A DNA stretch of 54,735 nt, filler included, from Jimgerdemannia flammicorona (Eukaryota): NCBI GenBank assembly GCA_003990765.1. It is 3 parts of 3 records of this genome, joined end to end, with 100 filler letters (N's around TTAATTAATTAA, not from the genome) between each part and the next. Parts side by side here need not be neighbours in the genome. Positions count along the whole stretch, not along the records: positions 36,562 to 54,735 come from RBNJ01002277.1; 2 more parts are not named here. One strand, 5' to 3'. How positions within the stretch are numbered: the first letter of the stretch is position 1; each line of letters starts with the position of its first letter. This document shows, in pieces, positions 3,695 through 52,607 of the stretch. The notes under the pieces were generated by a model. That model worked only from the letters and a program-made list of their open reading frames with translations, had not been told where the DNA came from and did no database searches. The position numbers were made by a program, and so were the translations under genes.

Positions 3695-3826
3695 ATTGAA
3701 AAATGTTATAATAATGATTCCAGCCTAGTACTCCATGCTCATCTCATCTCCAGCCAGATACAAGCACTATTCAGCTTTCAAGTCACCCTCTACATTAGTC
3801 TGAGCATCCAGTGCCTCTAAGATTTC

Positions 3827-5647: not shown

Positions 5648-5740
5648 GTTGATAGTCACTTGACACTGAAAACATAGTAAAAAGTGTTGTCTGAGTTCTT
5701 GTATCACCTGAATGTTACCAGTGAAAGATGGACTGTCAAT

Positions 5741-18183: not shown

Positions 18184-18283
18184 NNNNNNNNNNNNNNNNN
18201 NNNNNNNNNNNNNNNNNNNNNNNNNNNTTAATTAATTAANNNNNNNNNNNNNNNNNNNNNNNNNNNNNNNNNNNNNNNNNNNN
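18184..18283. other. Assembly gap with artificial TTAATTAATTAA linker
   Basis: N-run, 12-mer with stops in all six frames, N-run; identical layout at 36462-36561. Confidence 0.97.
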
Positions 18284-23819: not shown

Positions 23820-26280
23820 CACAAACATTGGAGAAGACTTGACACCCCAACAACAGCAATAACTAGTAGAACTTCTCAATAAATATCAAGATATCTTCAC
23901 CACTGATTATGGCAACCTGCCATACAACCCATCATATCACCACAGCATAAATATAGGAGATGCAACACCCATCTGGCAGAAACTCTATAGAATACCCCAT
24001 CACTTGAAAACATTCGAAAAGAGCACATTCAAGAACTCTTAGACAATGGAGTCATCCGACCCTCTACCAGCCCTTGGGCCAGCCCTATACTTATTGTACC
24101 AAAGAAAGGAGGATGGAGACTTTGTGTGGATTACAGGAAACTCAATTCAGTCACCAAAAAAGATGTCTATCCTTTGCCCAGAATTGATGACCTTTTGGAC
24201 TAGTTATAAGATGCCAGATACTTCAGCAGTATGGACCTCTTTGCAGGATTCCATGAGATCCCCATGGACCCCAAAGACATTCAAAAGACAGCCTTCCTTG
24301 CCCTAGAAAAACTGTTTGAATACCTCTAAATGCTCTTTGGACTTTGCAATGCACCCCCCACCTTCTAGAGGATGATGAATTCAGTCTATGCCCCTTTGAT
24401 CCACCACTGCCTAATTGTATACATGGATGATTCCAATATCTATTCAGCAAATTTCAAAGAACACCTATACTATCTAGAGGAATTCTTTAAGCTCACCCAC
24501 AAGAACCACTTGAGATTGAATGCAAAGAAATGCTACTTTGGGAAATAGAAACTTGAATTCCTTGGATTCATAGTTTCGAAAGAAGGAACCCATGCTGAGC
24601 CAAAGAAAACTGAGAAGATCAACAATTGGCCAGTACCCAAGACCCCAAAGGAAATACTATCATTCCTAATGCTAGTATCCTACTACAGAAGGTTTATCAA
24701 GAACTTTGCCCAAATTTCCACCCCAATCTGGATCCTTCTTAAGAAAGAAGTGCTATTCAAATGGACAGAATCACAAGAAATAGCCTTCAGAGAACTCAAG
24801 AACCACATAACCACAGCACCAATCCTTGTGTGCCCCAATCTACAGAAGCCATTCATTCTGTATACAAATGCTTCCAAAGATAGCCTAGGAGTAGTTCTAG
24901 CCCAAGAAGGACCCAATCAACAGCACCATATAATAGCTTATACAAGCAGAGCTACCAATCAGCAGCAGATGAACTATGGTAGCACCAAACTGAAATGTCT
25001 TACAGTCATATGGGCAGTCACTCTGTTCAAGCATTACCTTATCAGAAAAAAGTTCACCCTGATCACAGACCATGCATCCCTCAAATGATTATTCAACTAC
25101 AAAGAACCCACTGGAATCCTAGCCTGCTGGATCCTTATCCTTCAGGATTACAAAATCACCATCATCTACAAAGCAGAGAAAGCTCACAATAATGTTGATA
25201 TACTTTCCTGCCAGCAGCAATGAACCAGAAGAAGGGTGTCCCAAGGAATTACACCCTAAAGAAGGCTCCTCAAATCATCAAGGCACAAGAAGATCTCATC
25301 TGAAAAGAATACCAGAAAGCTCACCAAGAACAGATAAGTATAGAAGACAAGATTTGAAAATAATATCAACATTGGCCCCACCTTAGAGTATAAGTCTGAG
25401 ACATCATTTGGAAATGTGACACCTGCTAGAAGTACCAAGAAAAGAAGAACTATCAAGTCTCTCTGCAACTAATTCCCCCACCTACTCACATCTTTCAAAT
25501 ATGGGAAGTAGACGTAATAGGACCTCTGCTAGTAACACCAAAACCAAACAAGTACATTCTAGTATTTGTTGAACATCTGACCAAATGGCCCAAAGCATAC
25601 TCCATGGAGATAGCAGATGCCCTGACCATTATTGGACATCTCCATGACCTTTCTCTCCAATATGGACCCTCTGAAGAACTTATCTCTGACTAAGGAACTG
25701 AATTTGTGAATAACATAATTTCAAGCTATGCACAAATTCATGGAATCCACCTGAAGAGAATCATCTCTTATTATCCACAGACCAATAGAATAACTAAAAG
25801 AATGAACCATATTATCAAGAAAGGACTTTCCAAGGTTAATCCTATCAATTGAGACCTCTGCCTATCTGAAATTCTGTGGGAAATCTGAAACACCCCTGCA
25901 GCCTCAACTAAACAAACCCCATTCAAAATGATATTTGCTGAGAAGACCAGAACTGCTGACCATGAGAACCTCAAAAAACTTCTTAAAAAAGGAGATCAGC
26001 TGAGAAATGAAGCCTGAAATCAGATTATCAAGGCCCAGGAAAGACAAAAGAAGTATTATGACCAGAAGCAGAAGGATCAGAAGATCAGGATTGGTAATTA
26101 AGTCCTAGTTTGGAGAAGCATGATTGAGACAAACTTTGCTACCAAGATGGAATCAAAATGGAAAGGACCTTATCTTGTATACAACATCAGAGGAACCAGC
26201 ATCTATTTAAGGAGTATGGATGGATGTGTCTTGAGGACTCCATTCACATCAACTGACTCAAGATATACCTGCACAAACCA
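23820..26280 (+). pseudogene. Gypsy-2 RT, RNase H and integrase
   Basis: [33 protein letters not shown](D>N)TNAS, ITDHASL, DVIGPL, YHPQ-like YYPQTN, KWKGPY. Confidence 0.95.
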
Positions 26281-26785
26281 TGACCCAGAGAATAGATCAG
26301 TATCTTCAAACCCTCATCATCAGTTCCTTTCAAGCCCTACCAATTCCCCTACCCCAGTTCCACCAACTTGAAGGAACCCCAATATAATTGATCCAGAAGC
26401 ACCAAGAGAACCTCGCTATTGCTCAAAGATTGTTACAGATCCACCATCTACAGGTCTTCTATAATATCAGAGAACTACTTCAAGAACAGCCATATATTGG
26501 AGGACCAGCTGGCATAATCTGCCAAGAAGCAAGAACTGTCAAACAAATCTAAACCTTGTACAAACGAAATGTTGGAGTCCTGGTGCAGTCTCACTTCTAC
26601 CTCAATGATATTCATCAGATGAATGAAACCACCTTTTAGAGTATTCTTCAACAAGTAGACATTCTGTTTCCCGAAGAACAAGAAGAAGATCCAGAGCTAG
26701 AATGGAGTGACTCAGATACAGAGAAGATGATGATAGAACAGGCATAGATGCAGAAGATGTCTATGCTTATTGGAATGATGACTAA
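26280..26785 (+). pseudogene. Gypsy-2 extra ORF (ORF3) between integrase and PPT
   Basis: ATG at about 26280 overlaps the integrase end. The frame contains ARTVKQI*TLYKRN...DIHQMNETTF*SILQQV and an acidic tail, weakly similar to 37189-37650. Confidence 0.55.
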
Positions 26786-26824: not shown

Positions 26825-28029
26825 TGTGACAAACTACAAAACATAGCAATCTCAAAACCTAACCAGGTGATGTGAACATTAGTATAGTATAGTAACTAGC
26901 AATCATTACTGTGGAAAATGTATAAATAACCAGATAGTCAAAGAAAGGAATAATGTGAACAGTGGCTGTTCCCTGGACAGTAGCTGTCTGCCAGACAGTA
27001 GCTGTCCACCCAAACACATCATAAATAGCAATCTATAGTTAGCCAGATAGTAACCAGATAGCAACCACAATGTATAAATTACCCTAGAGATGAGAGTAAA
27101 TAAACCTCAGTCCAAAATTGAATCCAAAAAGCAAAAGACATGTCTGCCTACTACACTTCAAGGGATATGCCTGCCAAAAGCCACTAGATCTAAGAAGGAT
27201 TACAACACTTAGAAGAAACACCTGCTCTAAAGCCACTATTAGGAGATTGTAAGCATTGGTTCCCTTTTTCCACTCCAGTCCACTTTCCAATATAAAGAAG
27301 AGTCCATTTTTGGTTTGCTTGCCAGATAAGCCTGAAGAAAAGTCCACTGCTTAAGGAATAAGCTGCTATATTTAATTTGCTTACCAGATAAGTCTGAAGA
27401 TTTGCCACCCAAGTTTAAGGAAGAACTTCGCCACTATTTTCCAGTTGAAGCTACTGATTCAGGAAGAATCTGCATCATCTGAGTTAATTCCCAGTTGAAG
27501 CCATCATTTCCAAGTTATCTGCTATTCTCAGTAAAGCCCATTGCCTGAGTTATTGTTCTCAGAAAGCCCACTACATTCTTATCTGAGTTATTCAAATTAT
27601 CCACCTTGCCTGATTTATCCGAATTGCCTGCCAAATTGAGTTATCTGCCAGATTGCTGCATTCCCAGTTGACCTGTATAAGGAAATCCACTTGCACTATA
27701 CAAAAGATTGTCATGCCAGAAATCACATACTTTTGGAGATTGCCTCACTATACAAAATTGTGGTATTCCCAGTTGACCCAAATAAGGAATCTGCTTGTGC
27801 TACACACAAATTGACTACCATCCAAGAAGGAAACTGCTCACACAAATTACTGCTACACCCAAGAACCTGTCCCAAAAAGGAAACTGCTTATATAGTATCC
27901 AGATCTTGACTATTATACTGCTAAACACCAAGAACATTTTGTTGCTTTTAACAAAGTAACTGGGGGCTCAAGCCAAACTATATCAACCCCCAACCTTGTA
28001 ATTTGTCTCCATTGAGCTGGTATATTACA
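26825..28029 (+). repeat. Gypsy-2 3' LTR
   Basis: TGTGAC after the PPT-like TTAGTGGGGGCTGA; TATA-like TGTATAAAT, AATAAA; ends TATTACA. Confidence 0.88.
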
Positions 28030-31000
28030 GTACTAAGTGATAGTTATTGGGAGGAGATTCTTTATGAAGAAGAAGTACCAAGAAAGATTAGAAATGAAAT
28101 CCTGATAGTGCTCTTGGAGTTGGAGGAATATCAAGTTGATGATCAGAGAGAGGAGGCCCTTCAGGGGATTGCAAATAACTGAGCAGCATACTTGTGAGGC
28201 TCAAGGAAGAGGTTGGAGAAGTGAAGAGTGGTATGCACAGATTATTAGATGGAAATAAAGATTGTGGATAGAGTGGAGTGTCAGAAAATCTTGGAAGCAC
28301 TGGATGCTCAGGCTGTAGCAGAGGATGATTTAGAGGCAGAGTAGCATTTGGATCTAACTGGGAATAGGATGAGTATAGAATTCTAGACTGGGCTCTCAAT
28401 ATCAAACATTTTTCAATATGAATAGTACAACTAGAATCCTTTCTTTGAATGTGAATAGGTTGAGGAGAGCAGCATGATGAAGGAATATCTTTAGCTGACT
28501 GAGGGGACTGGATGCAGATCTCTTCTTACTGCAGAATGTATGATATGAGATAGACATAGACTTACTGGACTGGACTAGGGAATGGAGTGGGGCAGCTGTA
28601 TAGACTGGGTGGGTGGGCATTCTGGTTTGAAAGAGGATGGGGGACATTGGAGATATTGGACATTGGGAGAGTAGGTTGGTATAGGGAGTATGGAAGAGGT
28701 CTGGGTGGAACCCTTTGACTGTTGGGTTGTGTTATTGCCCAGCTGAGAGGGGGGAATGTGTAGATTGGGTCAGAGACCTGAGAGAGGCTGGTGTTATGGG
28801 TGAGGCAGGGATTGATTGTTTGGGGGGGGATTTCAACATAGTATGTGATAATGGGATGGACAGAACTAATGGCAGGAGAGGAATGAGAGGCAAAAGTAGC
28901 AGGTTAGACAATTGGATAAAGATTGAGAGGTTGAGCTCCTTGGTTAACTCAGGGCAACAGTTTTGGGTGGATTGTCGAATTTATACCCACTGGGTGACAG
29001 GGCTGGGCTCCAGGATTAACTGGGTATTGATGGCAGAGTGCTGGGAAGTAGATGTCTGAGATATGCTGGAGGTGGTTTGGTGCCCATAGTCAGATCACTG
29101 GGGTCTGATAGGGTGTGGGAGATTTGGGGGAAGTGGGGATGGGTCTGAACATTGGTGACTGAACTCTTCATTGTTGGAGGATGGTTCCTTATGGGCCAAT
29201 TGGGAGGTGGAAGTTATTGAGAAGATTAATGGATGGTGGGAGCAGAGATTGGTGATTGGGGATCACTGGTGGTGGCTGAAAATGAGTGCTCAGAGGTACT
29301 GGAGGGAGGCAGGGAAAGGAAGGAGTGCTCAGCAGTGGCAGCAAGTGCAATGGGCTTTACAGATATTGGCAGTACTTTTGGGGAGGTGGGCAGGGTCTCT
29401 GGAGGGTTAGAAGGCAGCTGATTGGCATATTCTGCAGATACAAAAGAAAGTAGATAAGCTTAAGGAAGTGCTATGAACAGAGAAAGAGGCTCGGCTGAAG
29501 GGGATGGTAGCAAGGTTGTGGTGGCAGAGGTTGGAGGAGGGGGAGAGGCCCACTAGGTTTCTTTCCCAGTTGCTCCAAGCTCAAAGAACCAGATAGCAGT
29601 AAGATGGTATTTTTGATGAGGATGGGGAGATAGTGGCAGGGACTCTTAAGATTCTGGAATTGCTGAGGACTCACTGAGAGAATTTATGGAGTGAGAAAGA
29701 AGGGGGTGAGAATGCCTTGAACATTGAATAGCAGTTGGAGGATTGGTATCCAGACCCAGTATTGAGCCTAGGGATACTGGGAGATCTAGTGTAGGGAGAG
29801 GAAGTTTGCAAGGTTTTGGCTTTGACAAGCAAGGGGACAGCTCTAGGAGAGGATGGACTTCCTTGGGATTTTTGGAAGAAGATGGTGGGGGTGGAGGTGG
29901 TATTGAAGGAGATGACAGTGATGTATGGTGAGGTTCTTCGGTCTGGAACTTGGATTGGGAGCCAGTGCCTAGGGTTGGTCTCTCTGCTCTATAAGGATAA
30001 GGGGAGAAGAGAAGATTAGAAGAACTGGTGACTGATCATGCTTCTTGATATGGACTGCAAGCTGGTGACAAAGATCTTGGTGACTAGACTGCAAAGAATC
30101 ACTCAGCAAGTACTAGAAGTGGAGCAGAGAGGGTTTGTTAGTGGTCAGTTGATCTGAGATGGAACTGTCTGGGTCTATGGGGTAATTGAAGGGGCTCAGA
30201 CAGCTGGGGTCAATAGTCAGTTAGTATTTCTGGATCAGGAGAAGGCATATGACAGAGTGAGGAGGATCTGGCTAGAGAGAGTGCTGAAATGAGTGGGAGT
30301 TCCCCCAGGGTTCAGGAGGTCAGTAATCAGTCTATTGGAAAACAGTCAAGCAGTATTGATAGTGAATGGGCACAGGGGTGTAACTTTCCCACTTAGTTGT
30401 GGGGTGCCACAAGGAGATCCTTTGTTACCTATCTTATATACCCTTTTCTTGAAACCTCTATTGGACAGAATCAGACATTGAATTAGGAGTTTGGATATTT
30501 TGGGAATTAATTAGAAAGTGGGGGCTTTTGTGGATAATATGGTGGCTGGACTGAGTTCATTGGAGGATGTGGAGGAATTAAGGAGGTCTGTAGAATGGTA
30601 TAAGAGGGGCTCAGATGCTAAACTCAACTGGCACAAATGTGAGACTCTGGTGCTAGGTGGCAGAATAGTTAGTGGTAATATGATTGGAACAGTGGTGCTG
30701 GCAGGAGAACCAGTCCATTACTTGGGGATCTACTTCTCAATATATGGGTCTCTCCTGCCTTATGCATGGTGGGAACAGCAGCTCCTAGTATAGGAAAATG
30801 TACTCTAAAGGTGGAGTGGTCAGCACATATCCTTGGCAGGAAGGGTGATGGTGCTGAATGTGTATTGGCTGCTGAAGCTGTGGTATGTAGAGTATTATCT
30901 GGACTTCCCAGTATGGGTGGTCAGAAGACTTCTGAAGATGGCAAGATCATGGATTAGAGCTGGGTGGTGAAGCCAGATAGGATGGGAGGTTCTGACCCTG

Positions 31001-32150
31001 CCTGTTGACAGAGGTGGGCTCAGCTTGGTGGACTTTACCAAATGTCTTCATTGCCTGAGAGAATGGTGGCTGAAGAGGGCAAGTGAGTTGAGGGGCTAGG
31101 AATGGGTACTACTTATGCAGAGGGTGTGGAAAGCCCAGTATTTCCCTTGTGGAGCAACTGGCAATCTGCTTGCAATGGTGGCCCTGGATGGAAGAAGAAG
31201 GATGAGATATAAAGGCTTTTGGTGGAGAGTGGTGAATGGTGCAAGGAGAATTGGACTTCAGTGACAGAGTGATGAGGGAGAGGAGGACTGGGGACCACAG
31301 ATATGGAGATGGGCCAGACTACTACTGGGTGGTGTATTGGTGGAGGATTTCCAGCTTGGCAATGGAATGGAATATATGTGGGGTCTAGGGGGGGACCTGT
31401 GACCTGAAGCATGGCAGAGGGTGGGTATTGGCAAGGAGTGAGACTGGAATGGTCTTTGGCCTTGAAGCAAGCAGGTGATACGATGACTTCCCCCCAAGTT
31501 CTGGGTAATATGGTGGAGGTTTCTAAGGCAGAATGTGATACTGAACTATCAGTCTGGATACTTGGTAGTGGATGGCATGTTTGAGTGTGAGGAATGTATG
31601 GATGTTGGCCAGAAGGGGGGAGTGGTACAAATGCCTGAACATTGACTTAGTGAGTGTGAAGTCCTGGAGGAGTTTTGGTACCACATTGCAAACCAGTTAG
31701 GACTGCAGGCCCTAGTGAAGGGGGAAGGGGGGAGATGGGGGGACCTCTGCTGAAGGCTAGTGGGTGGGATTGGGGATGAATGGTTGACCTTGGGATGGGT
31801 TCTGGCAATTTGGATTGAGCTGGCTGGGCATTGGTTACATATATTCAAGGAGGGCTGGCAGGCTGAGGTTGGAGCTAGGGCGGTATGATGGGAATAGTTA
31901 GTACTTGACATTTTGAATAGCTGGTGGAGAGGGTGGGGACCAGGTGGGGGGAGCTGATGGAGTTTGGTGAATTGTATTTGTTGAAAAAGTGGAGGGAGGG
32001 TTCAGATAGTGAGTGACTGAGTTATCCTCCAACAGAGAGAGATAGAGGATAGAGAAAAGAATCTGAGGGGTATCATTTGAGGGGTTGGGGGTGAAATTGT
32101 ATTATTATTTATAGATTGAGATAATAAAGGGAAGTCCAAGTGACTATAAA

Positions 32151-32193
<43 letters not shown>
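28030..32193 (+). mobile_element. LINE-C (ORF1 3' end, ORF2 from 28418, poly-A tail), degenerate
   Basis: MNSTTRILSLNVN, GGDFNIV, GVPQGDPL and AFVDN motifs, poly-A at 32155-32193. Close relative of LINE-A. Confidence 0.93.
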
Positions 32194-32197
<4 letters not shown>

Positions 32198-35100
32198 TAA
32201 GATGAGACTGTGAGTACAGGGGCTGATATCTCAATACTGGATGGAGGGCAGCCAGTGACTCCTAGGGAGAAGGAGGTGGGAAATCTGCTATAGATATATA
32301 AGATAATGAACAACTTTGCAGTAGAGGAGTTAGGGGAGGTGGACCTGTAAGTGATGAGTGATGAGTATTGGGTATATAACCTACATGGCAAGAGAGTGGT
32401 GGAGGTATGGAAGGCAGAGATTCTTGTAGTTTTTCTGGGAGAGGAAGGGTATGAGGTTGATAAGGAGAGAGAGGCTGAGCTGGCAGTTGCTGCTAGTAAG
32501 AGGGCTGCTTTCTGTTGAGCAGAGTGGTATGGGTTGCAGCTCTGGCAGGAGGCCTGTCTGAAATATTATGAGGAATTCAAGGAGAAGGAGGATGGGGAGC
32601 TTACAGAACTTCTGGTTGGACTGGAGGCTAAGAGGACTAAAGAGGAGGAAGCTGTGGAACATGATCTGGACCTGGCTCAGAAGGAGATGAATATGGAGTA
32701 GTAGAGGATATGCTTGCTATTATACATTATTCCTTATGAACAGTACAATCAATATTTTTTCTTTAAATGTGAATGGATTATGGGGTTTGTTTCATTGACA
32801 GAATATTTTTGCTTGACTGAAGAGATTGGAGGCTGATCTCTTTCTTTTGCAGGATGTCAGGTGTGAGGATAATTTGGATAAACTAGAATAGACAAAGAAA
32901 TGGGGAGGGGAGGCAGTTTGGAAGGACAAGGTTGGGATTCTGGTCAGGAAGAGCAGAGGGGAGGTATGAGATGTGTAGAACTGGAGAGATAGGCTGGTTT
33001 GGGGAGAGTGAATTTGCACTGGTCAGGAATTAGTTATAGTGGAATCCTGCTACTATCCTGTAGTATGGGGTGAGTGTATAGAGTGGGTGAAGAGTCTTCT
33101 GGAGAGAGGGACTCTGGCAGAGACTGGAGTAGACATGCTTGGTAGGGACTTTAATATGATCAGAGATGCACTGTTGGATAGAACTGATGGAGGGCAGGGG
33201 GCAGAGGGTAGAAGTGGAGGGTTGGAAGCATAGGAGGAAGTAGAGAGGCTGAGTGCTTTGATGGATGCTGGCAGGAGGTATTGGGATAACAGAAGGGTAT
33301 ATATACATTGAGTGAGTGGTCTGGGGACAAGGATTGACTGGATTTTGACAGCAGACTGCTGAGGTCTGGATGTTTAGAGGTCACTGGAGGCTGAATGGTG
33401 TACATGATCTGATCATTGGAGATTTCTGAGACAGGGCCATTTTGGGAGGAGTGGGGATGGACTGGGACATTAGCACCTCAACTCCTCCCTGTTAGACAAT
33501 AAGGTACTATAGGACAAGTGAGCTGAGGATATTCAGCAGAGGGTGGAGGGGTGGATACAGGAAGGTGCCTCAGTTGGAGCTAGGTGAATGAGGTTGAAAG
33601 AGGCTGCTAGAGTCTATTGGAGAGAGGCAAGTAAGATGGCTGATAGATAGAGGAGGAAGAAGAGGTTGTGGGCCTCTGCTAGATTATCAAGGCTGTTGGA
33701 AGATTGGGCAGATCTGTTGGCCCTGGAGAGGGTGGAGGATTGGAGATTGTTACAGATAAAAAAGGAGGTTGTGGAGTTGCAACAGGTATTGTGGGAGGAG
33801 AAGAAAGTGCAGGTGCAGAGAATGGTGGTACATCTATATTGGCAGGGGCTGGAGGAAGGAGAGAGGCCCTCTAAGTTTCTCATGAGGGCTCTTTGAGCAA
33901 GGAGGGTTCAGCAGAGGTAGGAGGGGGTTCTCGATTCTGAGGGGCTATTGGTGCATAGTATATAAGATATTCTCAGGTCACTGAAGGAGAAGTGGAGTGG
34001 CTTGTGGAGTGAGAAGGAGGGTAGGGCTGAGGCTGCTGCCATTGATCTTATCTTGGAGGATTGGCACCCACTATAGGTAGAAGGGTTGGGCAATCTGGTG
34101 ATACTGGTGCAGGAGGAGAAGATTTGTTAGATTCTTGCCATGACTATACTGAGTACAGCACCAGAGGAGGATGGCATGCCCTGGGATTTCTGGAAGAAGA
34201 TGGTGGATGTCCCTGGTATACTGGGAGAGCTGAGGGCACTATGCGACTTAGTACTGCAATCTGAGAGATAGGTAGATGAGCAGGATCTGGGGCTGGTGGC
34301 ACTACTGTATAAGAATAAGAGTAGGAGGAAGGACTGAAAGAACTGGAGGCTGATCATGCTACTGGACATAGACAGGAAGTTGATTACTAAGATAGTAATA
34401 GTGAGGCTGCAGAAGGTGGCCCAATAGATCTTATGGGTAGAGCAGTGGGAATTTGTCAGGGGCCAACTCATTTGGGATAGCATGGCTTGGGTACATAGCA
34501 TTATTGAAGAGGCATAAGCCTGTAGACTGGATAGGCACCTGGTCTTCTTGGATTAAGAGAAGGTATATGACCATGTTTGGAGGGTCTGATTGACAAAGAT
34601 ACTAGATAGAATTGGCATCCCTCAACAGTTTTGAGCAGTAATGGTCAGCCTACTAAAAGGGAGCAGGGCTGCACTCATGTGTAATAGGTATAGAGGGGTG
34701 GCTTTCTCTCTGGGTAGGGGTGTTCCCCAGGGGGATCCACTGTCTTCCATTTTGTATATGCTCTCCTTGGAGCCCTTAATGGATAGGATTTGACAGAAGA
34801 CAGGAGGGCTTTCAGTATTTAGCATTGAGTGAAAAGTAGGTGCCTTTGCAGATGATATAGTGGTAGGCCTGGGCTCAATTACTGATGTTGTGAAACTAAA
34901 AGAGACCATGGAGTGGTATGAGGTGCACTCTGGGGCTAAACTCAATTAATATAAGTGTGAAATAATGATACTGGGTAATGGCCTGGTGGGGGGGGATGTC
35001 ATCAGAACAATTGTCTCTACTGAGGAGGCAGTGAGATACTTGGGCATCTATCTTTCAATATATGAGTCAGTTCTTCCAAAACTCTGGTGAGAGCAGTGGA

Positions 35101-36461
35101 TTATTATCTGGGGAGAGGTCCTGTGGAGCTGAAGAGGCCACCACTTATCTCTGGCAGGGCATGTTTCTATCTTGAATACTTACTGGCTGCTGAAGTTGTG
35201 GTATTTGGCTTATCATCTGGACTTCCTGGCCTGGGTGGTGAAGAGACTGTTGAAACTAGCCAAGGAGTGGATCTGGGCTGGGAGGAGGAGTCAGATCAGC
35301 TGAGAAATCTTATCCTTACTAGTAACTAGAGGGGGACTCAGACTGGTTGACTTCCCAAAGAGGTTGCACTGCCTGAGAGTATGGTGGCTGAAGAGAGCTG
35401 TTGAGCTAGGGGGTGGCAGCTGGGTTCCTCTGTTAGAAAAGGTCTGGGAGATAAGGTTTTCACTGAGAGGCTCTACTGGAGATCTTCTGTCCTTGGTTAG
35501 ACTTCAGAATAATAGGCACATGTGGTTTAAGGGCTTCTGGTGAGGAGTTGCTAATGGGGCACACTATATTGGCATTCATTTGCAGAGAGATAAGAGAGAA
35601 AGACCTTGGGGCCTAGCAATGTGGAGATGGGACTGAGTGTTGCTGGGGGGTATCTTCTTTGGTGACTTTGATATTAGTGATGGGGTTGAGTATCAGAGGG
35701 AGTTGGGGCAGGATCTGTGGCCCAGCAGATAGCAGTTAGTAGGTATCAGAGAGAAGAGTGAAACTGGAATAGAATCTGGACATGGAGTGCTGAGGTTTAG
35801 CAGTGGCTACCACCAAAGTATTGGGTAATCTGGTGGCACATGTTGAGGAGGAATATTATGCTCAACTTTTACTCTGGCCACCTGGTGGAAGGGGGGAACT
35901 TTGACTATAAGGAGTGCTACAATTTTGGGCAGGAAGGGGGCTTTGTACAGATGCCTAAACATTGGCTAGAGGAGTGCGAGGTATTCAGTGACTTCTGGAT
36001 AGTAGTTGGGAAGAGGTTGGGTATCATGTAGAGAGGGGATGGTATAAGGGATCAGTGGGAGGATTTGTGGGATAGATTGGTGGGAGAGGTTGGGAAGGAG
36101 TGGCTTACTTTGGAGTGAGTACTGGCTGTATGGGTGGGGTTAGTGGGTCACTGGTTATTTGTATTTGAGGATGTGAGACATCTGGGCTTGGGAGTATAAT
36201 AGTTACAATGAGAAGGATTGATGGAGGATACTTTGATAGACTGGTAGCATGGTTGGAGACTGCAGGATGGTTGGCGGCATCATTTGGTAGAGAGAATATG
36301 TGGACAAAGTAGAGAGAGAGTTGGGGTTGTGAGAGACAGAGTGATTTTCAAGTATAAAAGAGTTGGAGAGAGGGGGGGTTCCCCTATGGAGATTGGGTAG
36401 TAGGAGGAGATAATGTAATTTTATGTATAAACTAGTAATAAATGATATAGTCTAAGTGACT
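32194..36461 (+). mobile_element. LINE-D (ORF1 3' part, ORF2 from 32736, 3' end at the gap), degenerate
   Basis: MNSTINIFSLNVNGL, GVPQGDPLS and AFADD motifs; family 3' terminus AATAAA...AGTCTAAGTGACT before the gap. Confidence 0.92.
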
Positions 36462-36561
36462 NNNNNNNNNNNNNNNNNNNNNNNNNNNNNNNNNNNNNNN
36501 NNNNNTTAATTAATTAANNNNNNNNNNNNNNNNNNNNNNNNNNNNNNNNNNNNNNNNNNNN
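36462..36561. other. Assembly gap with artificial TTAATTAATTAA linker
   Basis: Same layout as 18184-18283. Confidence 0.97.
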
Positions 36562-37199
36562 AAGTAACTACAGATAGAGGAACCGAATTCGTGAACCAGT
36601 TCTTCGAAGTTCTCTACAAGAAGTACAAGATCCAGCACATTCGGACCACAGCCTATCACCCTCAAGGAAATGGACAAGTAGAAAGAACCAACAAGACCCT
36701 CAAGAATGTTATCGCCAAGATCTGTGATAACTACGAGAACTGGGATCACTATCTGCCAATAGCATTATCTGCTCTCCGGGATATCCAATCACAAAGCACC
36801 CACTTTACCCCTCGAGAAATGCTGTTCAGAGAAGAATGTTCTCAAGGAACCCTATCATCCAATGGAGAGGCCATATGAAAACATGTGGACATGGAAATAT
36901 GGAGACTACACCAAATCAGGAAGAAGGCTGAGGATTACATAACCAAGGTGCAGACACTATAATGGAGGAATGCAGAAAAGACCCATAAGCTCTTGGAGAT
37001 TATCAAGATAGGAGACAAGGTCCTAGTGTATCGGAATATGGTAGAAGCTTCATGGTCACGAAAACTGGAGCCCAAGTGGGAAGGACCTTACCTTGTGCAA
37101 GATATAAAAGGGACTACCTTTTGGCTACGAAAACCCTCAGGCACAATAATTCCCACCACCATTCACTGAAACCGACTCAAGAAATATCATGGCCAGTAA
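36562..37199 (+). pseudogene. Gypsy-3 integrase core and GPY/F module
   Basis: ORF 36591-36878 and its in-frame continuation through a few stops. Confidence 0.93.
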
Positions 37200-37650
37200 C
37201 AAAAGTACTGCAATGGCACTCAAGATCACTAGTGCTGCCCAAAGAGCCATCGAAAGACAATGGCACACCACCGAGCCTCCGACCATAGAGCCATTTTACG
37301 AGGATATTCAGAGTATTGTGCAGACTCATCTCTCTCGGATCTCGTACTTTAGAGCCTATCAATACCGAGCAGAATTCCAAGAGTACTTCAAGCTTGGACA
37401 GGTACTCAATCAGGATCCAGCAAAGACCAAGGAGGACTGGATTGCCGAGTGTCAACTCTCTCACTCACAGATCACTATTGCCAAAAGGATCCACAAGTTA
37501 TTCCAAGAAGATGAAGCAGCGATAGACCACCTGAGAGGAGTAACCCCTACCGACTTCGAGAAAGTGAGAAGACATCATTGGGAAACAGTTATGCAGCAAA
37601 TTGCACAGTACAAGACCATACAGACCGTTGAAGCCTGGGAGTTTGAATAG
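37189..37650 (+). CDS. Gypsy-3 ORF3, 153-aa unknown soluble helical protein
   Basis: Intact ATG-TAG ORF that overlaps the integrase stop and ends just before the PPT. Homologous to the LTR-embedded ORF of Gypsy-4. Confidence 0.8.
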   Translation: MASNKSTAMALKITSAAQRAIERQWHTTEPPTIEPFYEDIQSIVQTHLSRISYFRAYQYRAEFQEYFKLGQVLNQDPAKTKEDWIAECQLSHSQITIAKRIHKLFQEDEAAIDHLRGVTPTDFEKVRRHHWETVMQQIAQYKTIQTVEAWEFE

Positions 37651-37687
37651 ATGCCTCAGAGATGAGACCATCCATTTAGGAGGAAGT

Positions 37688-38162
37688 TGTGATGGTACAG
37701 CCAGATTTGGAAGAAGGAAATAGGGAATAGAAACTTGATCACACCCATTCCCAAAGTAGTATAGCATTATAGTTAGCAGTCCTCGATTTCGACATTGTCT
37801 AATTTCTTAGACATTGTTTAAATTTTAGACATTATCCAAATCAAATACCCTGATTTAGTATAGCATTTAGACATTGTCCAAATGTTTCGACAAAGTCCAA
37901 ATGACTCATTTATTACTTAGCCACCCTCTCATAGCTAGCAAACTTGTATAAATAACCCAGTATCTTCGAGTGAATAAACCTCAGATCGAAATAGTTCAAA
38001 GCAAAGAGATAGCAAAGGAACTAGTAAGCCTGTGGGCAGATACACTTCGAACTCACCCACCCTCCCCTGCCACTTCAAGAGACTCTGCGAGAGTCAGAAC
38101 AGTCAAGTTTCAAGATACAGAAATCCGATGTACTTTCAAGAGTAAGTGTCCGCTACGTTACA
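37688..38162 (+). repeat. Gypsy-3 3' LTR
   Basis: TG...CA ends, short repeats TTAGACATTGTCCAAAT (37790-37900), TATA at about 37946 and AATAAA at about 37973. Confidence 0.85.
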
Positions 38163-40564
38163 ATAGATGTAATATATCAGGCTTAGTTCCACTCTATAAT
38201 TTTTTAGAAGTAAGATCATCATCTCTGGAATACTTGTTATTGCCAGAATTCTTACTCAGTGCTTGAGAAATATATCAATTATAGATATATACCACTGTAT
38301 TGATAGCTTCAGCCCAATAAGAATATAATAATCCTACTATATTAATCATTGTTCAAGCCATTTTAACAATCATATATATAGTTAAATTACTCAGTTATAT
38401 CATTTTGCTAGCATATATAGAGAGCTATCATTTGATGAAATATGTATGCTATATTTTCTCAGGAACTATCTGAATGTAATGTTGATATATTTACATTCAT
38501 TATCTAATTATATAGTATGTACTCTACATCCTGTCTTATTCTCAATAATTACTTTAAATTCTTTGAATTTTTCTAAGACTTCACTCATTACTAATAAGAA
38601 ATATATATATACTTTATACATATAATCATTAATGATATATGTTGGATACATCAGATATAGTTATTATATATATAGAGGCTTTTATACTATTTAGCATCTC
38701 ATTGATTATATAAAGATTACTATATTTTGAGACTATTATTAGCTTATTATTATGTAAATCATATACTATTATACTCTTTACAAATATATATATCTCTTTA
38801 TTGCTATATGATATTATCTTTTCCATCAAAAAGAGGTTTTTGCTGATTTCTGAAATATATAGTATATCTAGGAAAGTATCAGTAGATTCTATGATATTAC
38901 CATAGAGATATTATCCTGATATTTCTCTTTCCTTAAGTATAGATAATGTTGTTGTCTTCTAGTTTGATAGATATAGAGTATTTGAAAGGCTCATATGTAT
39001 ATAGAAAACCATTATCTATGTGGCATTATATATTATATGGCTCCAGAATCTATTGGTCAGATATTATTATTATTGGCTATATATATTTGTAGTAAATTCA
39101 TTGCTAGTAGTGCTTATATTATTGCTACTTTTTGTTAAGTAAAAAGTATTTTGCTGATCAGGATTCATAGATAATGAGATGGTGGATTTGATAGTAAAAT
39201 TGTAATCTATATATATTATTTGTATAAAGAATATATGTATTACTACTTTTATCAGTTTTAGTAATATTTGTATTATCATGCTTTTCTTTACCTTAATAAG
39301 TCTTTCCACTACCTTGACATTACTAATGCTAACCTCTATATTGTTGCTTATGATTTTCACCACTCTTCTTATCATTTTTCCAGTAATAACAATTGTACTT
39401 TCTGTATCTATACTTACTATAGTACTCACAGTAACTAATATACTTAGATCATTAAATAGACTAATTGTTATTATATTGATTTTGGGTTTGAATTTATTGA
39501 TCTTATTATTGTCCATACTTTTGATCTCATTTGATGCTACCACTATATCTACAGAACTTGTAAAAAGTATTTTTGCCATTATTACTACCATTTCCTTAGT
39601 ATATTTCCTCATTTATGAGACTTGTTAATATGTAGATATAGTCTATGAGTTTGTCACTCTTCTATATAGTCACTACTATGATATGATATATTTTACAAGA
39701 TTTCTTATAAGAGCTAAGACCTTGTCTTCATCACTTATACACTATACTGATATATTTAAAGAATTCACCTGATTTATCAGATTATCAATATAACTGATAT
39801 ATTCATAAATAGTCTTCTTGGGCTTTATTTATAAATTAAATAACTAAGATTTTAGATTGAATTGATTTGATGTAGATATTTATATAATAATTATATAGAG
39901 TCTTTTATATCTTATAAGTGATCATTATATTTATTATGAGCTTTGTTTGGAAGTTTGATAATATGAATATAATCTCTTATAAATATAATGGTCATTTGTA
40001 ATATTGTAATCTTGAATCAGTACTTGTGGCTTTATATACTCTGCTAAGTTACATTTATCAAGTAGATTTACTATATGAAATATCTAGATCATATAATATT
40101 TTCTGTTGAAGATTGAGATGGACCTCCTGGCTGTATTTATACTTAATAACTGAGACTATATTTCCTGTATCTGTTATAGTAATTATATCTATAGTATTAA
40201 TGGAGACTTGCAGATTAGTATATCTATTTTCATACTTACATTACAAGGCTAGTTGTTTGATATTTCTAGTATAGTATATTTAAAGAAGTGTATTGATATA
40301 CTATAGCTACTTAGCACTAGTAGGACTCATAACCTTTATTGTAAAGAGAGAGACATTTTTATTAAAGTTATATAGATTGCATATTTCACATATGTATTAC
40401 TAATAAATAATATAAAATTAATAGAATAGCATAATCATATATTGATATATTGAGTTGCTATCCCAATATATCTAAATGAAATAGATATAAGACTACTAGT
40501 ATTTTATAGATATATATATCTCTAATGAGTTAATTATTATCTTTTTTGATAATTTTGAGCAATA
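38163..40564 (-). mobile_element. Heavily decayed Ty1/Copia element (5' LTR, gag, protease, integrase)
   Basis: Minus strand: PBS-like GGTTATGAGTCC at about 40323-40334, *PIDSGA protease at about 39040-39060, integrase FKEFKVIIENKTGCRVHTI*LDNECKY and GLLYSYWAE. IN follows PR directly, as in Copia. Confidence 0.8.
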
Positions 40565-40659
40565 TACTACTATAAGAACTCTAACAGCAGTATAGTAAAT
40601 AGCTCTTATATCATTTAGTCTCTAAGAACTAGCAAGCTATATTTATAACTATAAATCAT

Positions 40660-41250
40660 ATTGGAAATAATGATGCTATAATCCTGATAGAACAGAAGGC
40701 CTGATTGCAAACCACCTATTATATTGATAAAATCAAATAGACTCTGAAAGACCAACTTAATATCATCTGGTAAGGAATAAATAAAGTTCCAAATACCTTT
40801 TATATATATCTGAAACCACTATTAGATAATCTTAGCCAACTATATTAATGTTATTAGAGATCAAGTAGCTGAAGTAATCTTTATGAAAGGAATTTACCTA
40901 GAGATAGTTATAGCAATCTGATGAATATCAATAGTTCTGAACTTAGTACAGAAGATAACTTATACTCAGTGATATTAAATAGCCAGATACTTTCAAGACT
41001 ATATAATGGAGAGAGTCACTAGAGTTAGGGTTAAAATATCTAAAGTAATTAGTATAATTTTCTCAACTATAGTCAATTGAAACATATCTCAACCAAAGAC
41101 TACAGAGTAATATAAGTATAGTAATCTTATAGAGAAACTTATCAAAAATTTTGCTAAAATAACTATATATCTGGAAGTTATAGTAAAAAAAATCAAAAGG
41201 AGAATTGCCTAGTTTAGAAGTTTGTAGCCACAATTTCTTAGGCTATAATA
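40660..41250 (+). pseudogene. Gypsy-5 gag fragment (old relative of Gypsy-4)
   Basis: LKDQLNII and VIFMKGIYLEI match Gypsy-4 gag LKDQLNTI and SIFLKGVHPEI. Confidence 0.75.
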
Positions 41251-41384
41251 TAGGTAAATTTGCCTGTAAAAAAAAATAATATATAATTTTTATTTAAAAA
41301 AAATATTTTACTAATTAAAATTTTTTTTCAAAAAAAGATTTTTTTTATACTTTTATTAATAAATATAAGATTAAATATATATAT

Positions 41385-42871
41385 TGTTATGTAGTGGTCG
41401 CTGAGTTCTTTAAATATACCAGATTCTCTTCAAGGTATATATCTTAGACTAACTCAAGTTTGTTATAAGCAAGTTCTTATTGGAGTACCTTCCCAAGGTC
41501 TTATAGTCCTCAAACTTCTTATTTTTAAACTATCTTATTATCTCTTAGATTGCTTATAAGAAAGTGTGTGTATTGCACTGAGAGGAACTGATTTTATTTC
41601 AGAGAAAATAAGTGGGGTATTTATACAAAATATAATTCAATGGTTGCTAAGATATAGAACTAAATATAAATTCCAATAACTAAAACTACTAAGTTCCAGG
41701 GTCAGTACTGGTGGTTGTACAGGTTCAGGATGCTGGTATAATTCAGTATCATATCAGAATACCAGTGCTGGAAAAATTTCATGTTACCTTAGAATACCAG
41801 TGCTGACATTATTCAGTGTAACAAAGAACTTAGAGCAGAAAGTTCAGGATCATAGAGGCTTCATCATCATCATCATCATCATCACTGAAGGAGATGAGAT
41901 CTGCAAATTTGTTGTTTTCATATACTTCAATATCACACAGGATGATGTCATCACTGATGATATCATCATGTTTGGCAGTGGGGAAGTCAGGGGCTCTCCA
42001 ATCTATGAGGTTCTCTTCCACAAAGTAAGGAACAAATGTGGGGTCTTGGGGAGGTCTAACCTGGATGTTTGGGCCTTAGAATACTGAGATCAATCCTTGT
42101 AGGAATTGGTCTGGGTTGTCCTGAAGAATGGGATACCAGAAGTCTTCTACTTTGTCACTATTGAGAGTAATAGTGGACTGGGCTTCTGTAGCCACCCTGG
42201 CTTCTAGTGCATTGATACAGCAGATGATAGGTCTCTGAAATCTGAGACTCTAACATACTCTAAGTTGGGGATTGACCATGGTGCATACCTGAAGATCTGG
42301 TGAATCTTCTTAGCTATTCTTGTCTCACATATATCCATGGGAGTAACATCTTATAACTCTTGAGGGCTGGCCTGTGGGAACTCTTGGCAGAGGAGGTTTT
42401 CTATTTCATACTCCTGCTATATTTGGAGGCATTCAGTAGTAATGGTGATCCTTGTTTCCATTTTGCGGCAGTAGAGGATAAAGTAATAGAGATCTGCACT
42501 ACCCAGGTTGATACTGAGAGTCCTTCTTGAGTGGGTCCTCATGGCTCTTCTGATGTCTTGGAACATCCTTTCCTCAACTGAGATGCCTTGGTGATTCCTT
42601 AACCTTGAGGTTTAGCAAGCAGCAGGCATTTTGTTTGTGGTAAGTCTTTGAACTATTTTGGAATTAGTAGTTCTTGTTGGTTGCTGCTACTGCAGTTCCT
42701 TGATCCTTCTTTTATATTCTTCAGAATGCTTGTACTGTAGTCACAATGACTCATAGTTGGTCATCATTGCTCATCTCATATGCCATATGATCTTCTTGTA
42801 CTCTGATCTGGTAACTTGTGAGAAAAGGCTGTCTCCTGTGCTGATGTCATCATTCTGATGTCACTGTTACA
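41385..42871 (-). repeat. Gypsy-4 3' LTR
   Basis: Direct repeat of 48542-50053. Confidence 0.93.
41830..42629 (-). pseudogene. LTR-embedded ORF (ORF3 family), 3' LTR copy
   Basis: MPAA...TRIAKKIHQIFRYAPWSIPNLEYVRVSDFR...DDDDDDDEASMILNFLL*; 800 nt with one 1-bp deletion. Confidence 0.75.
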
Positions 42872-48421: not shown

Positions 48422-49021
48422 CTTGTCTTAAATTCTTATAGGGATGACTCTTGTAGTCAGGGTAGTTGTTGTGGGGGTTATTCATTTTTCAGCTTGAAAG
48501 TGAGGGATTCGTCTTGAATCACTAGCCAATGAGCACTAAGTTGTCATGTAGTGGTTGCTGAGTCCTTCAAATATACCAGATTCTCTTCAAGGTATATCTC
48601 TTAGACTAACTCAAGTTTGTTATAAGCAAGTTCTTATTGGAGTACCTTCCCAAGGTCTTATAGTCCTCAAACTTCTTATCTTTAAACTGTCTTGTTATCT
48701 CTTAGATTGCTTTCAAGGAAGTATATGTATTGTACTGAGAGGAACTGATTTTATTTCAGAGAAAATAAGAGGAATATTTATATAAAATATAATTCAATAG
48801 TTGCTAAGATATAGAGCTAAATATAAATTTCAATAACTAAAACTACTAAGTTCCAGGGTTGATACTAATGGTTGTATAGGTTCAAGATGCTGGTAGAATT
48901 CAGTATCACATCAGAATATCAGTGCTGGAACAATTTCATGTTATCTCAGAATACCAGTGCTGGCATTATCCAGTGTTATATTAAAATACTAGTACTGGCA
49001 TTATTCAGTGTAACAAAGAAC

Positions 49022-49811
49022 TTAGAGCAGAAAGTTCAGGATTATAGGGGCTTCATCATTATCATCATCATCATTACTGAAGAAGATGAGATCTGCAAAT
49101 TCATCATTTTTGTGTGCTTTGATGTTGTACAGGATGATGTCATCATCAATGACATTATCACATTTGGTGGCAGAGAAGTTGGGGGCTCTCCAATCTATGA
49201 GGTTCTCTTCCACAAAGTAAGGAACAAATGTGGGGTCTTGGGGAGGTCTAATCTGGATGCTTGGGCCTTAGAATACTGCGATCAATCCTTGCAGAAATTG
49301 GTCTGGGTTGTCCTGAAGGATGAGATGCCAGAAGTCTTCTACTTCATCACTATTAAGGGTGATAGTGGACTGGGCTTCTGTAGCCACTCTGGCTTCTAGT
49401 GCATTATTATGGTGGGATGACAGATATCTGAAATCTGAGACTCTAACATACTCCAAGTTGGGGATTGACTATGGTACTCTGGTGGATCTTCTTAGCTATT
49501 CTTGTCTCATATATATCCATGGGAGTAGCATCTTGTAGCTCTTGGGGGCTGGCCTGTGGGAACTCCTGGTAGAGGAGGTTTCTTATTTCATACTCCTGCC
49601 ACATTTGGAGGTATTCAGTAGCAATAGTGATCCTTGTTTCCATTTTACAGCAGTAGAGGATAAAGTGATAGGGATCTGTAGTACCCAGGTTGATACTGGG
49701 AGTCCTTTTTGAGTGGGTCCTCATGGCTCTTCTGATGTCTTGGAACATTCTTTTCTCAACTGAGATGCCTTGGTAATTCCTTGACCTTGAGGTTTGGCAG
49801 GCAGCAGGCAT
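49022..49811 (-). pseudogene. LTR-embedded ORF (ORF3 family), 5' LTR copy
   Basis: ORF pieces 49443-49811, 49268-49456 and 49022-49213 join into one frame after repairing an 11-bp deletion and one stop. Confidence 0.75.
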
Positions 49812-49891
49812 TTTGTTTATAGTAAGTTTTTGAGCTATTTTGGGATTGGTGGTTCTTGTTGGTTACTGCTACTGTAGTTTCTTGATTCTTC

Positions 49892-49898
49892 TTTTATA
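49892..49898 (-). promoter_or_regulatory. TATA box in the Gypsy-4 LTR (second copy at 42710-42716)
   Basis: TATAAAA is present in both LTRs, about 80 nt upstream of the A-rich AACAAAATG start. Confidence 0.6.
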
Positions 49899-50101
49899 TT
49901 CTTCAGAATACTTGTACTGTGGTCACAATGACTCACAGTTGGTCATCATTGCTCATCTCATATATCATATGATCTCCTTGTGCTCTGATCTGGTGGCTTG
50001 TGAGAAAAGGTTGTCTCCTGTACTGATGTCATCATTCTGAAGTCACCATTACAATATATATAATAATAAAAAGTTTAAAATTTTACAAGCAAATTTGTCT
50101 G

Positions 50102-52425
50102 CAAAAATATAGAATCTATTAACTATAAATAAGAGAGAAATCTGCTATACTTATAGAGAAGAAGGCTACTACTTCTACAAAATGTATGAGTAATATCAAG
50201 TATAATATTCAGCTAAGAAATACTATTAGAAACTATGAACAGACCAATACCATTATTTTCAAAGAGATTGAAGATTTAGAGGAAGAGTAAGAATGAGAAG
50301 CTTATCTTACTCTTATCTCTAAAAAGGATATCTATAAGAAACTCTATAAGAGATCACTGAAAAGACCCAAGAATAATTCAGTAGAATAGTCTCTAGAAGA
50401 ATAAATAGAAGTATCTATAGAAAGTAAAACTACAGCCAAAGAATTAGATCAAGATATAGAACTCAAATAAGTAGTCAAGAATATTATCTGAGACAATACT
50501 TTTGCTAATAAATGAGAGAAAAAGAAGTTACAAAAGAGTAAGATCTTTAAGTATAATATTGAGTCAGCAAAAAGTCATTGCAATCTTTGGATAATTGGCA
50601 GAAATTCCCATTTTCAGATAATAAATAAGACTGAAAAATACAGAAACAGTCAAGAATCAAGAATGGAAGATAGTAGAGATTGATAATATATAGAAAGACT
50701 CTATCAAAGAGTGTGAAGAAGATAACTACAAGATCTCTATCTATGCTATCTACTATATTAAGGACAGAATTCTTGAAGCCATCATTGATATAAAAGTAGA
50801 AAAATGTCTCCTCAGCAATAAAGCTATAGACTGCCTAAATTGGAAAATTGAAAAAAGTTATAAAATTAGTATTTATTATAGCAAATAGTACAGGAACTAT
50901 CCCTTTTGAGATATCTCTATTAAGTTTGAAGGAGCAATCATCCCAGTAAATATGATCATTACAAATACTACTAACTATAATATTCTTATTAGCAACTAGT
51001 GGCTTCACAAGGCCAAGGCTATAATTGATATAAATTTTCAAAAGATACAGATTGTCTACTGAGAATAAAAGATGTAAATTCTAATTAATGTTAACAAAGA
51101 AGTACTCTCTGAGATAGAGAAAGAAGTTAGTAAGCAAGAAGAATTCTATATTATAACTACTCAAAAAAAGAAGAAAAAGGTCAGATAGATCAGTAAAGAA
51201 GATTAGTATAAGAAGATTACTAAAGGATATACTCTATAAGGAATCTGTCCTTATAGAATTCAGATATACTATATAAAGTATATAGTTGAGTACTTCTAAT
51301 ACATTATTAAGATCTATAAAATTCATTATAAAGAAAAGAAAGAAGACAAAAGCATTAAGAAAAGAAAGCCCAGGAGGATGAACCACTAGCCCTTTTAGAA
51401 AATAGTAATAATAAAGAAAAAATTAAGACCAAAATTTAGAGGATTTAGTCCTGTTAGAATATAAGTCAGAAAATACAGCTAAAATGGATATTATTATAGT
51501 TAAAGAGACAGTTCTTGAACTATAGACAACTGCTCTACTTACAACTAACCTAGAGATGACTATTTCTAAGAACTATATCAGAATACTCAAGACAAAGAGT
51601 AGTCTAGCCAAGAGTGAAATTTCAATTGAAGGAGAAGTTATCAAATTCTGATTATATTGGAAAAATTCTACTTATTGTCAGAAATCACAACTCCACAATT
51701 CCATTTGTAGTTAAGAAGAAGAACTGACTCATACAAATACTGATCTTTCCAGTACTATAACCCAAGATCTTGAAAGTAAAGAAGCTAGAGAAAACAGAAA
51801 GAGGAAGAGAAGAAGTTAGATCTATAGGAAGAGAAGTTTTTATTAGTCAATATTACCAAACAGACCACAAGAAGGAGAAAATTATAGACAAGTATAGCTA
51901 TACTATTAGAAATGAATTTCTATTCAAAAAAGAACTCAGAAAACTATTGTATAAATTTGAAGATATTCTTATTACTGATTTTAAGAATATTAAAGAAAAG
52001 ATACTATACTACTATTATGATATGTATGGATATAGAAGACCTTAAGCCAATCTATCAAAGAGTAAGACCAATCCCACTAGTATATTGTAAATAGCTCAGA
52101 GAAGATATCAAGTAGATGGAGAAAGCTAGCATTACCAAGAAGATCATTAGTCCATAGTTCTCACCAATTATATTAATTCTGAAGAAAGAAAGAAAGCTAG
52201 AAAAATTCACCCCAAGACTCTATACAGACTATAGAAAACTCAATAAAGTTATCAAGAAGGATTACCTACTACTCCTTATTAGTGATATTCTAATAATACT
52301 AGAAAATAAAGTATAATACTATTCTATTTTAGATTTATACTCAGAATTCAATCAAATTGGTCTCACCAGAGAAGTCAGTAAAAAGTCATCCTTTATTACT
52401 CCAGATAGAACCTATGTCTATTATT
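50102..52425 (+). pseudogene. Gypsy-5 continuation: gag end, protease, dUTPase (about 51460-51830) and start of RT, very AT-drifted
   Basis: Collinear with Gypsy-4: AIID.., KSSLAKSEISIEG, KPIYQRVRPIP, DYRKLN, LDLYSEFNQIG. Confidence 0.82.
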
Positions 52426-52607
52426 ATAATTGATTGAAATAGACATTTGATTATGATACCTAAATCTAATTCCCAAATATAGTATAGCCTTATAAATAGC
52501 AATCATATTTCATAAACATAGAAATTCCATAGATATAGAAATTCTACAGATGTAGAATCTTTATGATTATAGAGATTTTATAGATATAGAGGATCTATAC
52601 TTGTAGA

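Follow-up and report, generated by a model that had tools for sequence, protein, structure and literature searches.

Most LTR retrotransposons are taken to require no genes beyond gag and pol; in the few cases where a third gene has been proven to play a part, as for env and CERV, the view of the element changed with it. An intact open reading frame (ORF) of 153 amino acids (aa) that follows a broken Ty3/gypsy integrase in the genome of Jimgerdemannia flammicorona (GenBank assembly GCA_003990765.1) raises the question of whether it is a gene of its element and, if so, what its product does. We refer to this frame, which lies after the integrase of element 1 on the third contig, as ORF3, and to the whole 54,735-nt stretch of DNA that was analysed as the window. 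The window joins three contigs by artificial linkers (N44-TTAATTAATTAA-N44) at 18184-18283 and 36462-36561; no feature is to be read across either joint, and the contig that bears element 1 begins at 36562.

The ORF3 locus and other elements of the window

ORF3 runs on the plus strand from an ATG at 37189 to a TAG at 37648-37650. Upstream of it, the C-terminal half of a Ty3/gypsy integrase (36564-37199, plus strand) is recognizable from its translation and from weak, fragmentary matches to Pfam rve and rve_3 that cover this half only. The integrase frame is interrupted by stops at 36876, 36960 and 37167, and its regular stop is at 37197-37199; ORF3 reads in the +1 frame with respect to it and so shares its first 11 nt with the end of the integrase. 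Downstream, 27 nt separate the ORF3 stop from a polypurine tract (AGGAGGAAG; 37678-37686, plus strand), which lies one base before a 475-bp 3' LTR with TG...CA ends (37688-38162, plus strand). The same polypurine motif precedes the LTR of a second gypsy element in the window. Soil-metagenome contigs match through 38163 and then continue into a common sequence resembling a primer-binding site (PBS), which provides an independent marker of the LTR end. ORF3 takes up the interval from the integrase to the polypurine tract and 3' LTR, as a sequence-only reading of the locus had described. Because the contig starts inside the integrase, element 1 lacks gag, the 5' LTR and the greater part of pol and is reduced to a 1.6-kb 3' fragment.

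The U3 region of the LTR contains five copies of a 13-nt motif with a GACA core (37790-37900, plus strand), 5' of a TATA-like core motif (GTATAAATAACC; 37946-37957, plus strand) that is common to the LTRs of related elements; an AATAAA is found at 37973. Written as GTATAAATA[AC]CC, the TATA-like motif has five matches in the window at no more than one mismatch, against 0.28 expected, with sites at 15927-15938 (minus), 26920-26931 (plus), 37946-37957 (plus) and 41615-41626 (minus), and it recurs in three metagenome loci discussed below (L001:7634, L002:997 and L004:752). Tandem short repeats stand upstream of this conserved motif in the U3 of the window element and of L001 and L004. The set of sites also includes an LTR-like repeat pair on contig 1 (10566-11898 and 15442-16787), the copies of which are 87-91% identical and 4.9 kb apart; this pair may be a short or non-autonomous relative.

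The same sequence-only reading had noted that the frame stays open beside an integrase bearing stops. The observation is correct, the integrase having three of them, but it is weaker evidence than that reading took it for. Shuffling the 1.6-kb stretch of the element 2000 times yields an ORF of at least 153 aa in 9 cases. The integrase offers 27 sites at which a transition would create a stop and contains 3 stops, and ORF3 offers 24 such sites and contains none (P ~0.07), so for it to have stayed open beside the damaged integrase is no more than mildly unusual. The window's copy of ORF3 sits in a dead, truncated element, and its intactness may come from youth alone.

Metagenome contigs differ from the window at 153 positions across 36562-38170. 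Among the 40 differences listed, 13 fall in ORF3 (9 synonymous, 4 non-synonymous). The integrase accounts for 12, of which 6 are synonymous and 5 non-synonymous, and one affects a codon that is a stop in the window. At 25 of the 40 positions a T or A of the window stands against a C or G of the other copies, and at 10 it is the reverse, the other five being transversions; this bias indicates that the window copy has gained C-to-T and G-to-A changes. Along the element, the contigs gave no informative joint at ORF3 and a single, unrelated joint in the LTR. Two AT-rich flanks (38163-41383 and 50054-52700) have a GC content of 24-29%, and the second still encodes a protease-like peptide similar to that of element 2, so that the flanks are probably older gypsy copies that were heavily mutated by transitions in a RIP-like decay; a search for host genes in them found none.

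Two further gypsy elements in the window, elements 2 and 3, share a dUTPase-containing architecture. Element 2, on the minus strand, is bounded by LTRs at 41384-42871 and 48541-50053 that are 87% identical, and its integrase has 74% nucleotide identity to that of element 1. Its 3' LTR (42871 to 41384) contains a decayed ORF3-family sequence with two stops (42222-42575, minus strand), and the same sequence is found more weakly in its 5' LTR (50053 to 48541) at 49479-49760 (minus strand). Direct comparison of ORF3 with the element 2 LTR copy by tblastn gives E 0.15, and the family profile described below gives E 4e-6, with an hhalign probability of 87% (E 3.9e-6); the 5' copy alone scores E 0.2-0.4 against the profile. 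This decayed copy accounts for the match of the ORF3 core to a "Gypsy-4 LTR ORF" that the sequence-only reading had pointed out. It lies wholly inside the LTR, in U3 and about 300 nt from the LTR start, and the U3 of element 2 exceeds that of element 1 by about 1 kb. Integrase and polypurine tract of element 2 are separated by a 370-nt spacer that gave no family signal, and no integrase remnant was found upstream of the LTR-borne copy. On the middle contig, a weak candidate family member with three stops (26280-26741, plus strand) follows the integrase of element 3, its ATG overlapping the integrase stop (ATGA); it scores E 0.04 against the profile and E 0.016 in hhalign, at a probability of only 2.9%.

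The remainder of the window includes LINE-like non-LTR elements at 1-6000 (minus sense) and 28000-36400 (plus sense), with an endonuclease at about 32760-33356 and reverse transcriptase (RT) at about 30017-30733 and 34329-35051. These elements show an extreme strand bias of G over C (GC skew +0.34 to +0.53, with the mirror image of -0.36 to -0.57 on the first contig); their AT skew is close to zero.

The ORF3 protein family and its carriers

A word-indexed protein search with ORF3 returned 14 candidates, nine of which reached E <= 0.01 at 64-82% identity; two of these close relatives share with ORF3 both the 153-aa length and the C-terminus. When cluster representatives were searched exhaustively, two further groups, P0011 and P0013, emerged at 26-27% identity, and a profile search placed 25 of 629 candidates at E <= 0.01, in three subfamilies reaching down to about 23% identity. 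With cluster members the family comprises 62 proteins, 29 of them full length (150-169 aa). All derive from environmental assemblies (JGI/IMG, ENA, Logan, NCBI and SRC), where the sole name attached to them is "hypothetical protein." Even at about 23% identity, the three subfamilies keep the N-terminal Met and a core of three motifs in the order EFQ..Y/F...G, TIA.R.Y/H.LF and A..H..GI. Of 23 listed sequencing runs, which span 12 studies, 20 contain parts of the window; most are metagenomes from soil, alongside one root metagenome and two coded organisms, and none of the listed runs is recorded as RNA.

Searches for known relatives gave little. Pfam yielded nothing but sub-threshold noise for ORF3 and 23 family members, and the Chromo profile had no match at E <= 1 in these proteins and none in the L001 and L004 integrases. 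The best hit of a sequence profile search of the PDB had E 0.058 and was judged unrelated, and the ESM Atlas returned only unnamed or unrelated clusters for ORF3; it includes P0028, but with no model. No longer relatives were present among 101 candidates, our searches found no host-like relatives, and scans of viral contigs and genome contigs gave no usable locus. ORF3 shows no similarity to the gag or the integrase of L001. A 776-aa repeat protein (P0012, E 3.6e-4 in the exhaustive search) that offered a helix-turn-helix (HTH)-repeat lead was rejected, its hhalign probability being 0.3% and its Pfam matches repeat noise.

To place the family in its genomic context, we scanned metagenomes with a narrow family alignment and obtained four loci, L001-L004. 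Two of these, L001 (7.9 kb) and L004 (8.2 kb), each represent a complete Ty3/gypsy element with the order gag-PR-dUTPase-RT-RNaseH-IN followed by a family member, the dUTPase lying between protease and RT; the CCHC zinc knuckle of gag was scored in L004 only. L002 holds an integrase end, ORF3 and a whole LTR, and L003, which starts within ORF3, is partial but open. Five members come with upstream sequence (the window, L001, L002, L004 and P0060), and each of them directly follows an integrase. The carrier is a Ty3/gypsy (Metaviridae) LTR retrotransposon, its full pol order being given by elements 2 and 3 and by L001 and L004.

The junction with pol is equally regular. In L001, L002 and L004, the ATG comes directly after the conserved integrase end NRLKKY, and ORF3 is in the +1 frame in all four junctions, with overlaps of 11, 56, 56 and 53 nt (11 in the window, 53-56 in the three loci). 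A Met occupies the aligned N-terminus in all three subfamilies. In P0060, integrase and ORF3 form a single chain; set against L002, it proves to be a frameshifted copy whose switch into the ORF3 frame comes 24 codons ahead of the Met. In the L family, the ORF3 stop falls 1-2 nt before the point matching the start of the 5' LTR copy of L004, and no separate polypurine tract is evident, so the purine-rich last codons of ORF3 may double as one. A short hairpin occurs at the LTR start, right after the ORF3 stop (L001:6897-6917, L004:7843-7863 and L002:639-661), where changes in both arms between L001/L004 and L002 preserve pairing; no counterpart was seen in element 1 of the window.

Each of the three complete ORF3 copies from the metagenome loci bears a lesion: one in-frame stop in L001, a stop three codons before the end in L002 and a frameshift near the 3' end in L004. 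L001 and L004 are 95-100% identical through gag-pol and 56-68% identical across ORF3 (L001:6400-6897 against L004:7360-7843), which points either to recombination that exchanged the ORF3 cassette or to a chimera made in metagenome assembly. The 5' LTR of L004 and the LTR of L001 are 96% identical. L001:1-99 repeats L001:7846-7944 exactly, from the LTR end into the PBS. This 99-nt terminal repeat indicates that the L001 contig is a circular collapse of two LTRs and not a transcript; its circularity is either an assembly effect or that of a one-LTR circle.

Across the four metagenome loci, pN (0.23-0.35) lies below pS (0.66-0.84) in 6/6 pairs, and the three pairs with unsaturated dS have dN/dS of 0.15, 0.20 and 0.19. 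These pairs come from loci of the distant subfamily, the window's own subfamily being represented only by the listed contig differences given above. The ORF3 family evolves under purifying selection. Because the family recurs downstream of other integrases, is under purifying selection and has no known match, both grounds on which the sequence-only reading could have been rejected fall away: a dN/dS near 1 in a frame that lacks relatives behind other integrases, and a match to an already characterised retroelement protein.

The protein itself has no membrane segment (highest 19-residue Kyte-Doolittle mean 0.03), and its 25 N-terminal residues have a mean hydropathy of -0.32; together with the Chromo result, these values bear out the earlier view that transmembrane segment, signal peptide and chromodomain are all lacking. 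Its helical appearance also recurs in the structure predictions, which contain 7-8 helices. AlphaFold2 with 44 aligned sequences predicted 8 helices at pLDDT 65 and pTM 0.58, an earlier model with 14 sequences having reached pLDDT 45. With the pLDDT 65 model as query, Foldseek found nothing at E <= 0.001 in PDB or BFVD, its top row being a transcriptional repressor at E 1.6 and probability 0.41, and an exhaustive wide VIA-align search gave a best Z of 6.0, to a generic helical hairpin. On these results, the HTH-like fold suggested by the sequence-only reading is a candidate fold for ORF3. ORF3 belongs to a real protein family that has no Pfam, PDB-sequence or fold match.

The family is acidic (pI 4.7-6.2). 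In two subfamilies the last 20 residues include 8-10 Asp/Glu plus Trp, Phe and Leu; the window protein has 3 acidic residues there, and the acidic/aromatic tail is shorter in its group. The resemblance to a Tas-like tail is one of composition only, an acidic C-terminus with interspersed aromatic or Leu residues. An Arg/Gln-rich patch is confined to one subfamily and absent from the window's group, and no basic RNA-binding stretch is conserved across the family. As an acidic protein of 150-170 aa, predicted to be all-helical and without a membrane segment, ORF3 is of cytosolic or nuclear type and is not an envelope protein.

Proposed role of ORF3 and competing explanations

ORF3 is a genuine accessory gene, maintained by selection, of a Ty3/gypsy lineage with the order PR-dUTPase-RT-RNaseH-IN and no chromodomain. 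The lesion in each complete metagenome copy speaks against the gene reading, and the intactness of the window copy is in itself weak evidence for it (P ~0.07). The whole explanation that we favour, at a probability of about 0.65, is that of a selected accessory gene that would be translated from its own AUG; a role of its product as a trans-acting regulatory adaptor is the part of this explanation with a much lower probability.

Translation would start at the AUG of ORF3, which is conserved in three subfamilies and located just after NRLKKY, inside the end of pol. By analogy with the third genes of other gypsy-type elements, a spliced subgenomic mRNA would be the likeliest template, with reinitiation after pol termination as an alternative; no splice signal for an ORF3 mRNA was established. 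The helical body might attach to the LTR of its element, or to a host factor on that LTR, and the acidic/aromatic tail might recruit host transcription machinery. A transactivator of this kind would exert positive feedback on its element, as complex retroviruses do through their 3' regulatory genes.

That ORF3 is a trans-acting regulatory adaptor, and most likely a transactivator, we propose tentatively, as one possibility that draws on three features: the gene has a 3'/U3 position, its product ends in an acidic-aromatic tail, and tandem repeats precede the conserved TATA-like motif in U3. However, the fold model, which is of moderate confidence, matched nothing, so that no DNA-binding fold was recognised; an acidic protein is unfavourable for nucleic-acid binding; and the tail is short in the window's group. 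Roughly a quarter of the probability goes to some other role, including roles that we have not imagined.

ORF3 could instead be an integration cofactor, a detached targeting module that takes the place of a chromodomain by binding the integrase or pre-integration complex and, on the host side, a factor of chromatin or of transcription. The start of ORF3 coincides exactly with the end of the conserved integrase, the lineage lacks a chromodomain, and the acidic/aromatic tail could be a docking motif. These arguments are positional, ORF3 is similar to neither integrase nor gag, and the family member of element 2 lies in U3, away from the integrase; we regard such a function as unlikely.

We consider equally improbable a factor that is the only product of a spliced mRNA and that either enables the unspliced genomic RNA to be exported, in the manner of Rev or CERV, or counters silencing by host RNAi, methylation or repeat mutagenesis. 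Export has a precedent in a non-env accessory protein of a gypsy-type element that is needed for genomic RNA export, as described in PMC10309623, but the ORF3 family is acidic and lacks a conserved basic RNA-binding stretch. An anti-silencing function would suit a host genome that shows heavy transition mutagenesis of repeats, but a dN/dS of 0.15-0.20 is unlike the signature of an arms race.

Extension of pol by programmed +1 frameshifting in the overlap, which would join ORF3 to the C-terminus of integrase, is very unlikely. It would explain the +1 frame at all four well-preserved junctions, the 13-26 codons over which the ORF3 frame is open upstream of the ATG, and the single chain of P0060. 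Against it, each of the three subfamilies keeps a Met at one and the same point of the alignment, the overlap varies from 11 to 56 nt with no common slippery site seen, and P0060 is by comparison with L002 a frameshifted copy whose entry is 24 codons early.

Finally, a chance or decaying frame or host-derived passenger with no function, for which one could cite the dead and truncated element, the P of ~0.07 for openness alone and the lesions in every complete distant-subfamily copy from the metagenome loci, is hardly credible given three subfamilies that retain length, start and motifs down to about 23% identity, pN far below pS, and a gene that is always element-borne and for which no longer or host-like relatives were found.

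Relation to known systems

A compact third gene, conserved across deeply diverged relatives, with a fixed start at the end of pol and found once inside an LTR, makes the ORF3 family a defined candidate for a regulator encoded by a retrotransposon. The host is probably a fungus of soil or roots in which repeats are strongly mutated. About 60 environmental proteins that lacked annotation gain a context as retrotransposon ORF3s, and the family helps to annotate metagenomes and repeat-rich genomes.

Among retroviruses, foamy virus Tas and Bet, MMTV sag and lentiviral nef are 3' genes that lie in or overlap U3, and sag and nef have moved into it. ORF3 resembles these genes of complex retroviruses in its place at the 3' end, in the element 2 copy that lies inside an LTR and in a tail composition like that of an acidic activation region; it differs in that no sequence or fold similarity to them was found and in that its host is not a vertebrate. 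We speculate that gypsy elements bearing a dUTPase are "complex retrotransposons," in which ORF3 would act like Tas or Tax on a repeat-bearing U3 and might be a cassette that moved into U3 once. The contrast between L001 and L004, near identity in gag-pol and 56-68% across ORF3, suggests that such a cassette may be exchangeable. This idea is doubtful; if it is true, regulatory complexity of the retroviral kind arose independently in a non-animal host.

The env gene of errantiviruses (Drosophila gypsy and its relatives) is expressed from a spliced RNA. ORF3 likewise occupies the "env position" after pol, but it has no signal peptide or membrane anchor and is not of comparable size. Like the chromodomain of chromoviruses, ORF3 is an extra module placed right after the GPY/F region of the integrase; unlike it, ORF3 has a separate frame and its own Met, is predicted to be helical and has no Chromo match. 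A chromodomain in this position is common in fungal Gypsy elements according to PMC2864245, where a figure legend for such elements also names an "add. ORF" without a known function.

Among LTR retrotransposons, additional ORFs to which no function has been assigned form a recognised class, as described in PMC5408684 and PMC11963269. In the account of PMC5408684, the Juno, Vesta and TelKA elements of bdelloid rotifers carry several types of ORF3, which are Env-like, GDSL esterase, DEDDy exonuclease or transmembrane/coiled-coil proteins, and have a dUTPase between PR and RT. Plant elements carry additional ORFs (aORFs) in sense and antisense, those of Retand being antisense and carrying TRP28 (PMC11963269). 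As these sources portray them, the bdelloid and plant frames share with ours a sense position between pol and the 3' LTR, family specificity and, often, the lack of a recognisable function; the family described here corresponds to none of these types, having no Pfam match and no membrane segment. CERV of the Caenorhabditis elegans element Cer1 is, as presented in PMC10309623, a 517-aa protein with a G-protein-like domain, made from a five-exon mRNA that overlaps gag and without homologues outside its host group. Like ORF3, it is a non-envelope accessory protein of a Ty3/gypsy-type element; unlike it, ORF3 proteins have 150-170 aa, follow the integrase and show no similarity to gag. Our search of the literature on additional ORFs of LTR retrotransposons did not bring up the ORF3 family. 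The proposal of an undescribed accessory family thus stands as regards its conservation and the lack of a Pfam, PDB or fold match, but not as regards the class, which was already known. To that class the ORF3 family adds a member that is present in distinct lineages and is not a one-off transduction.
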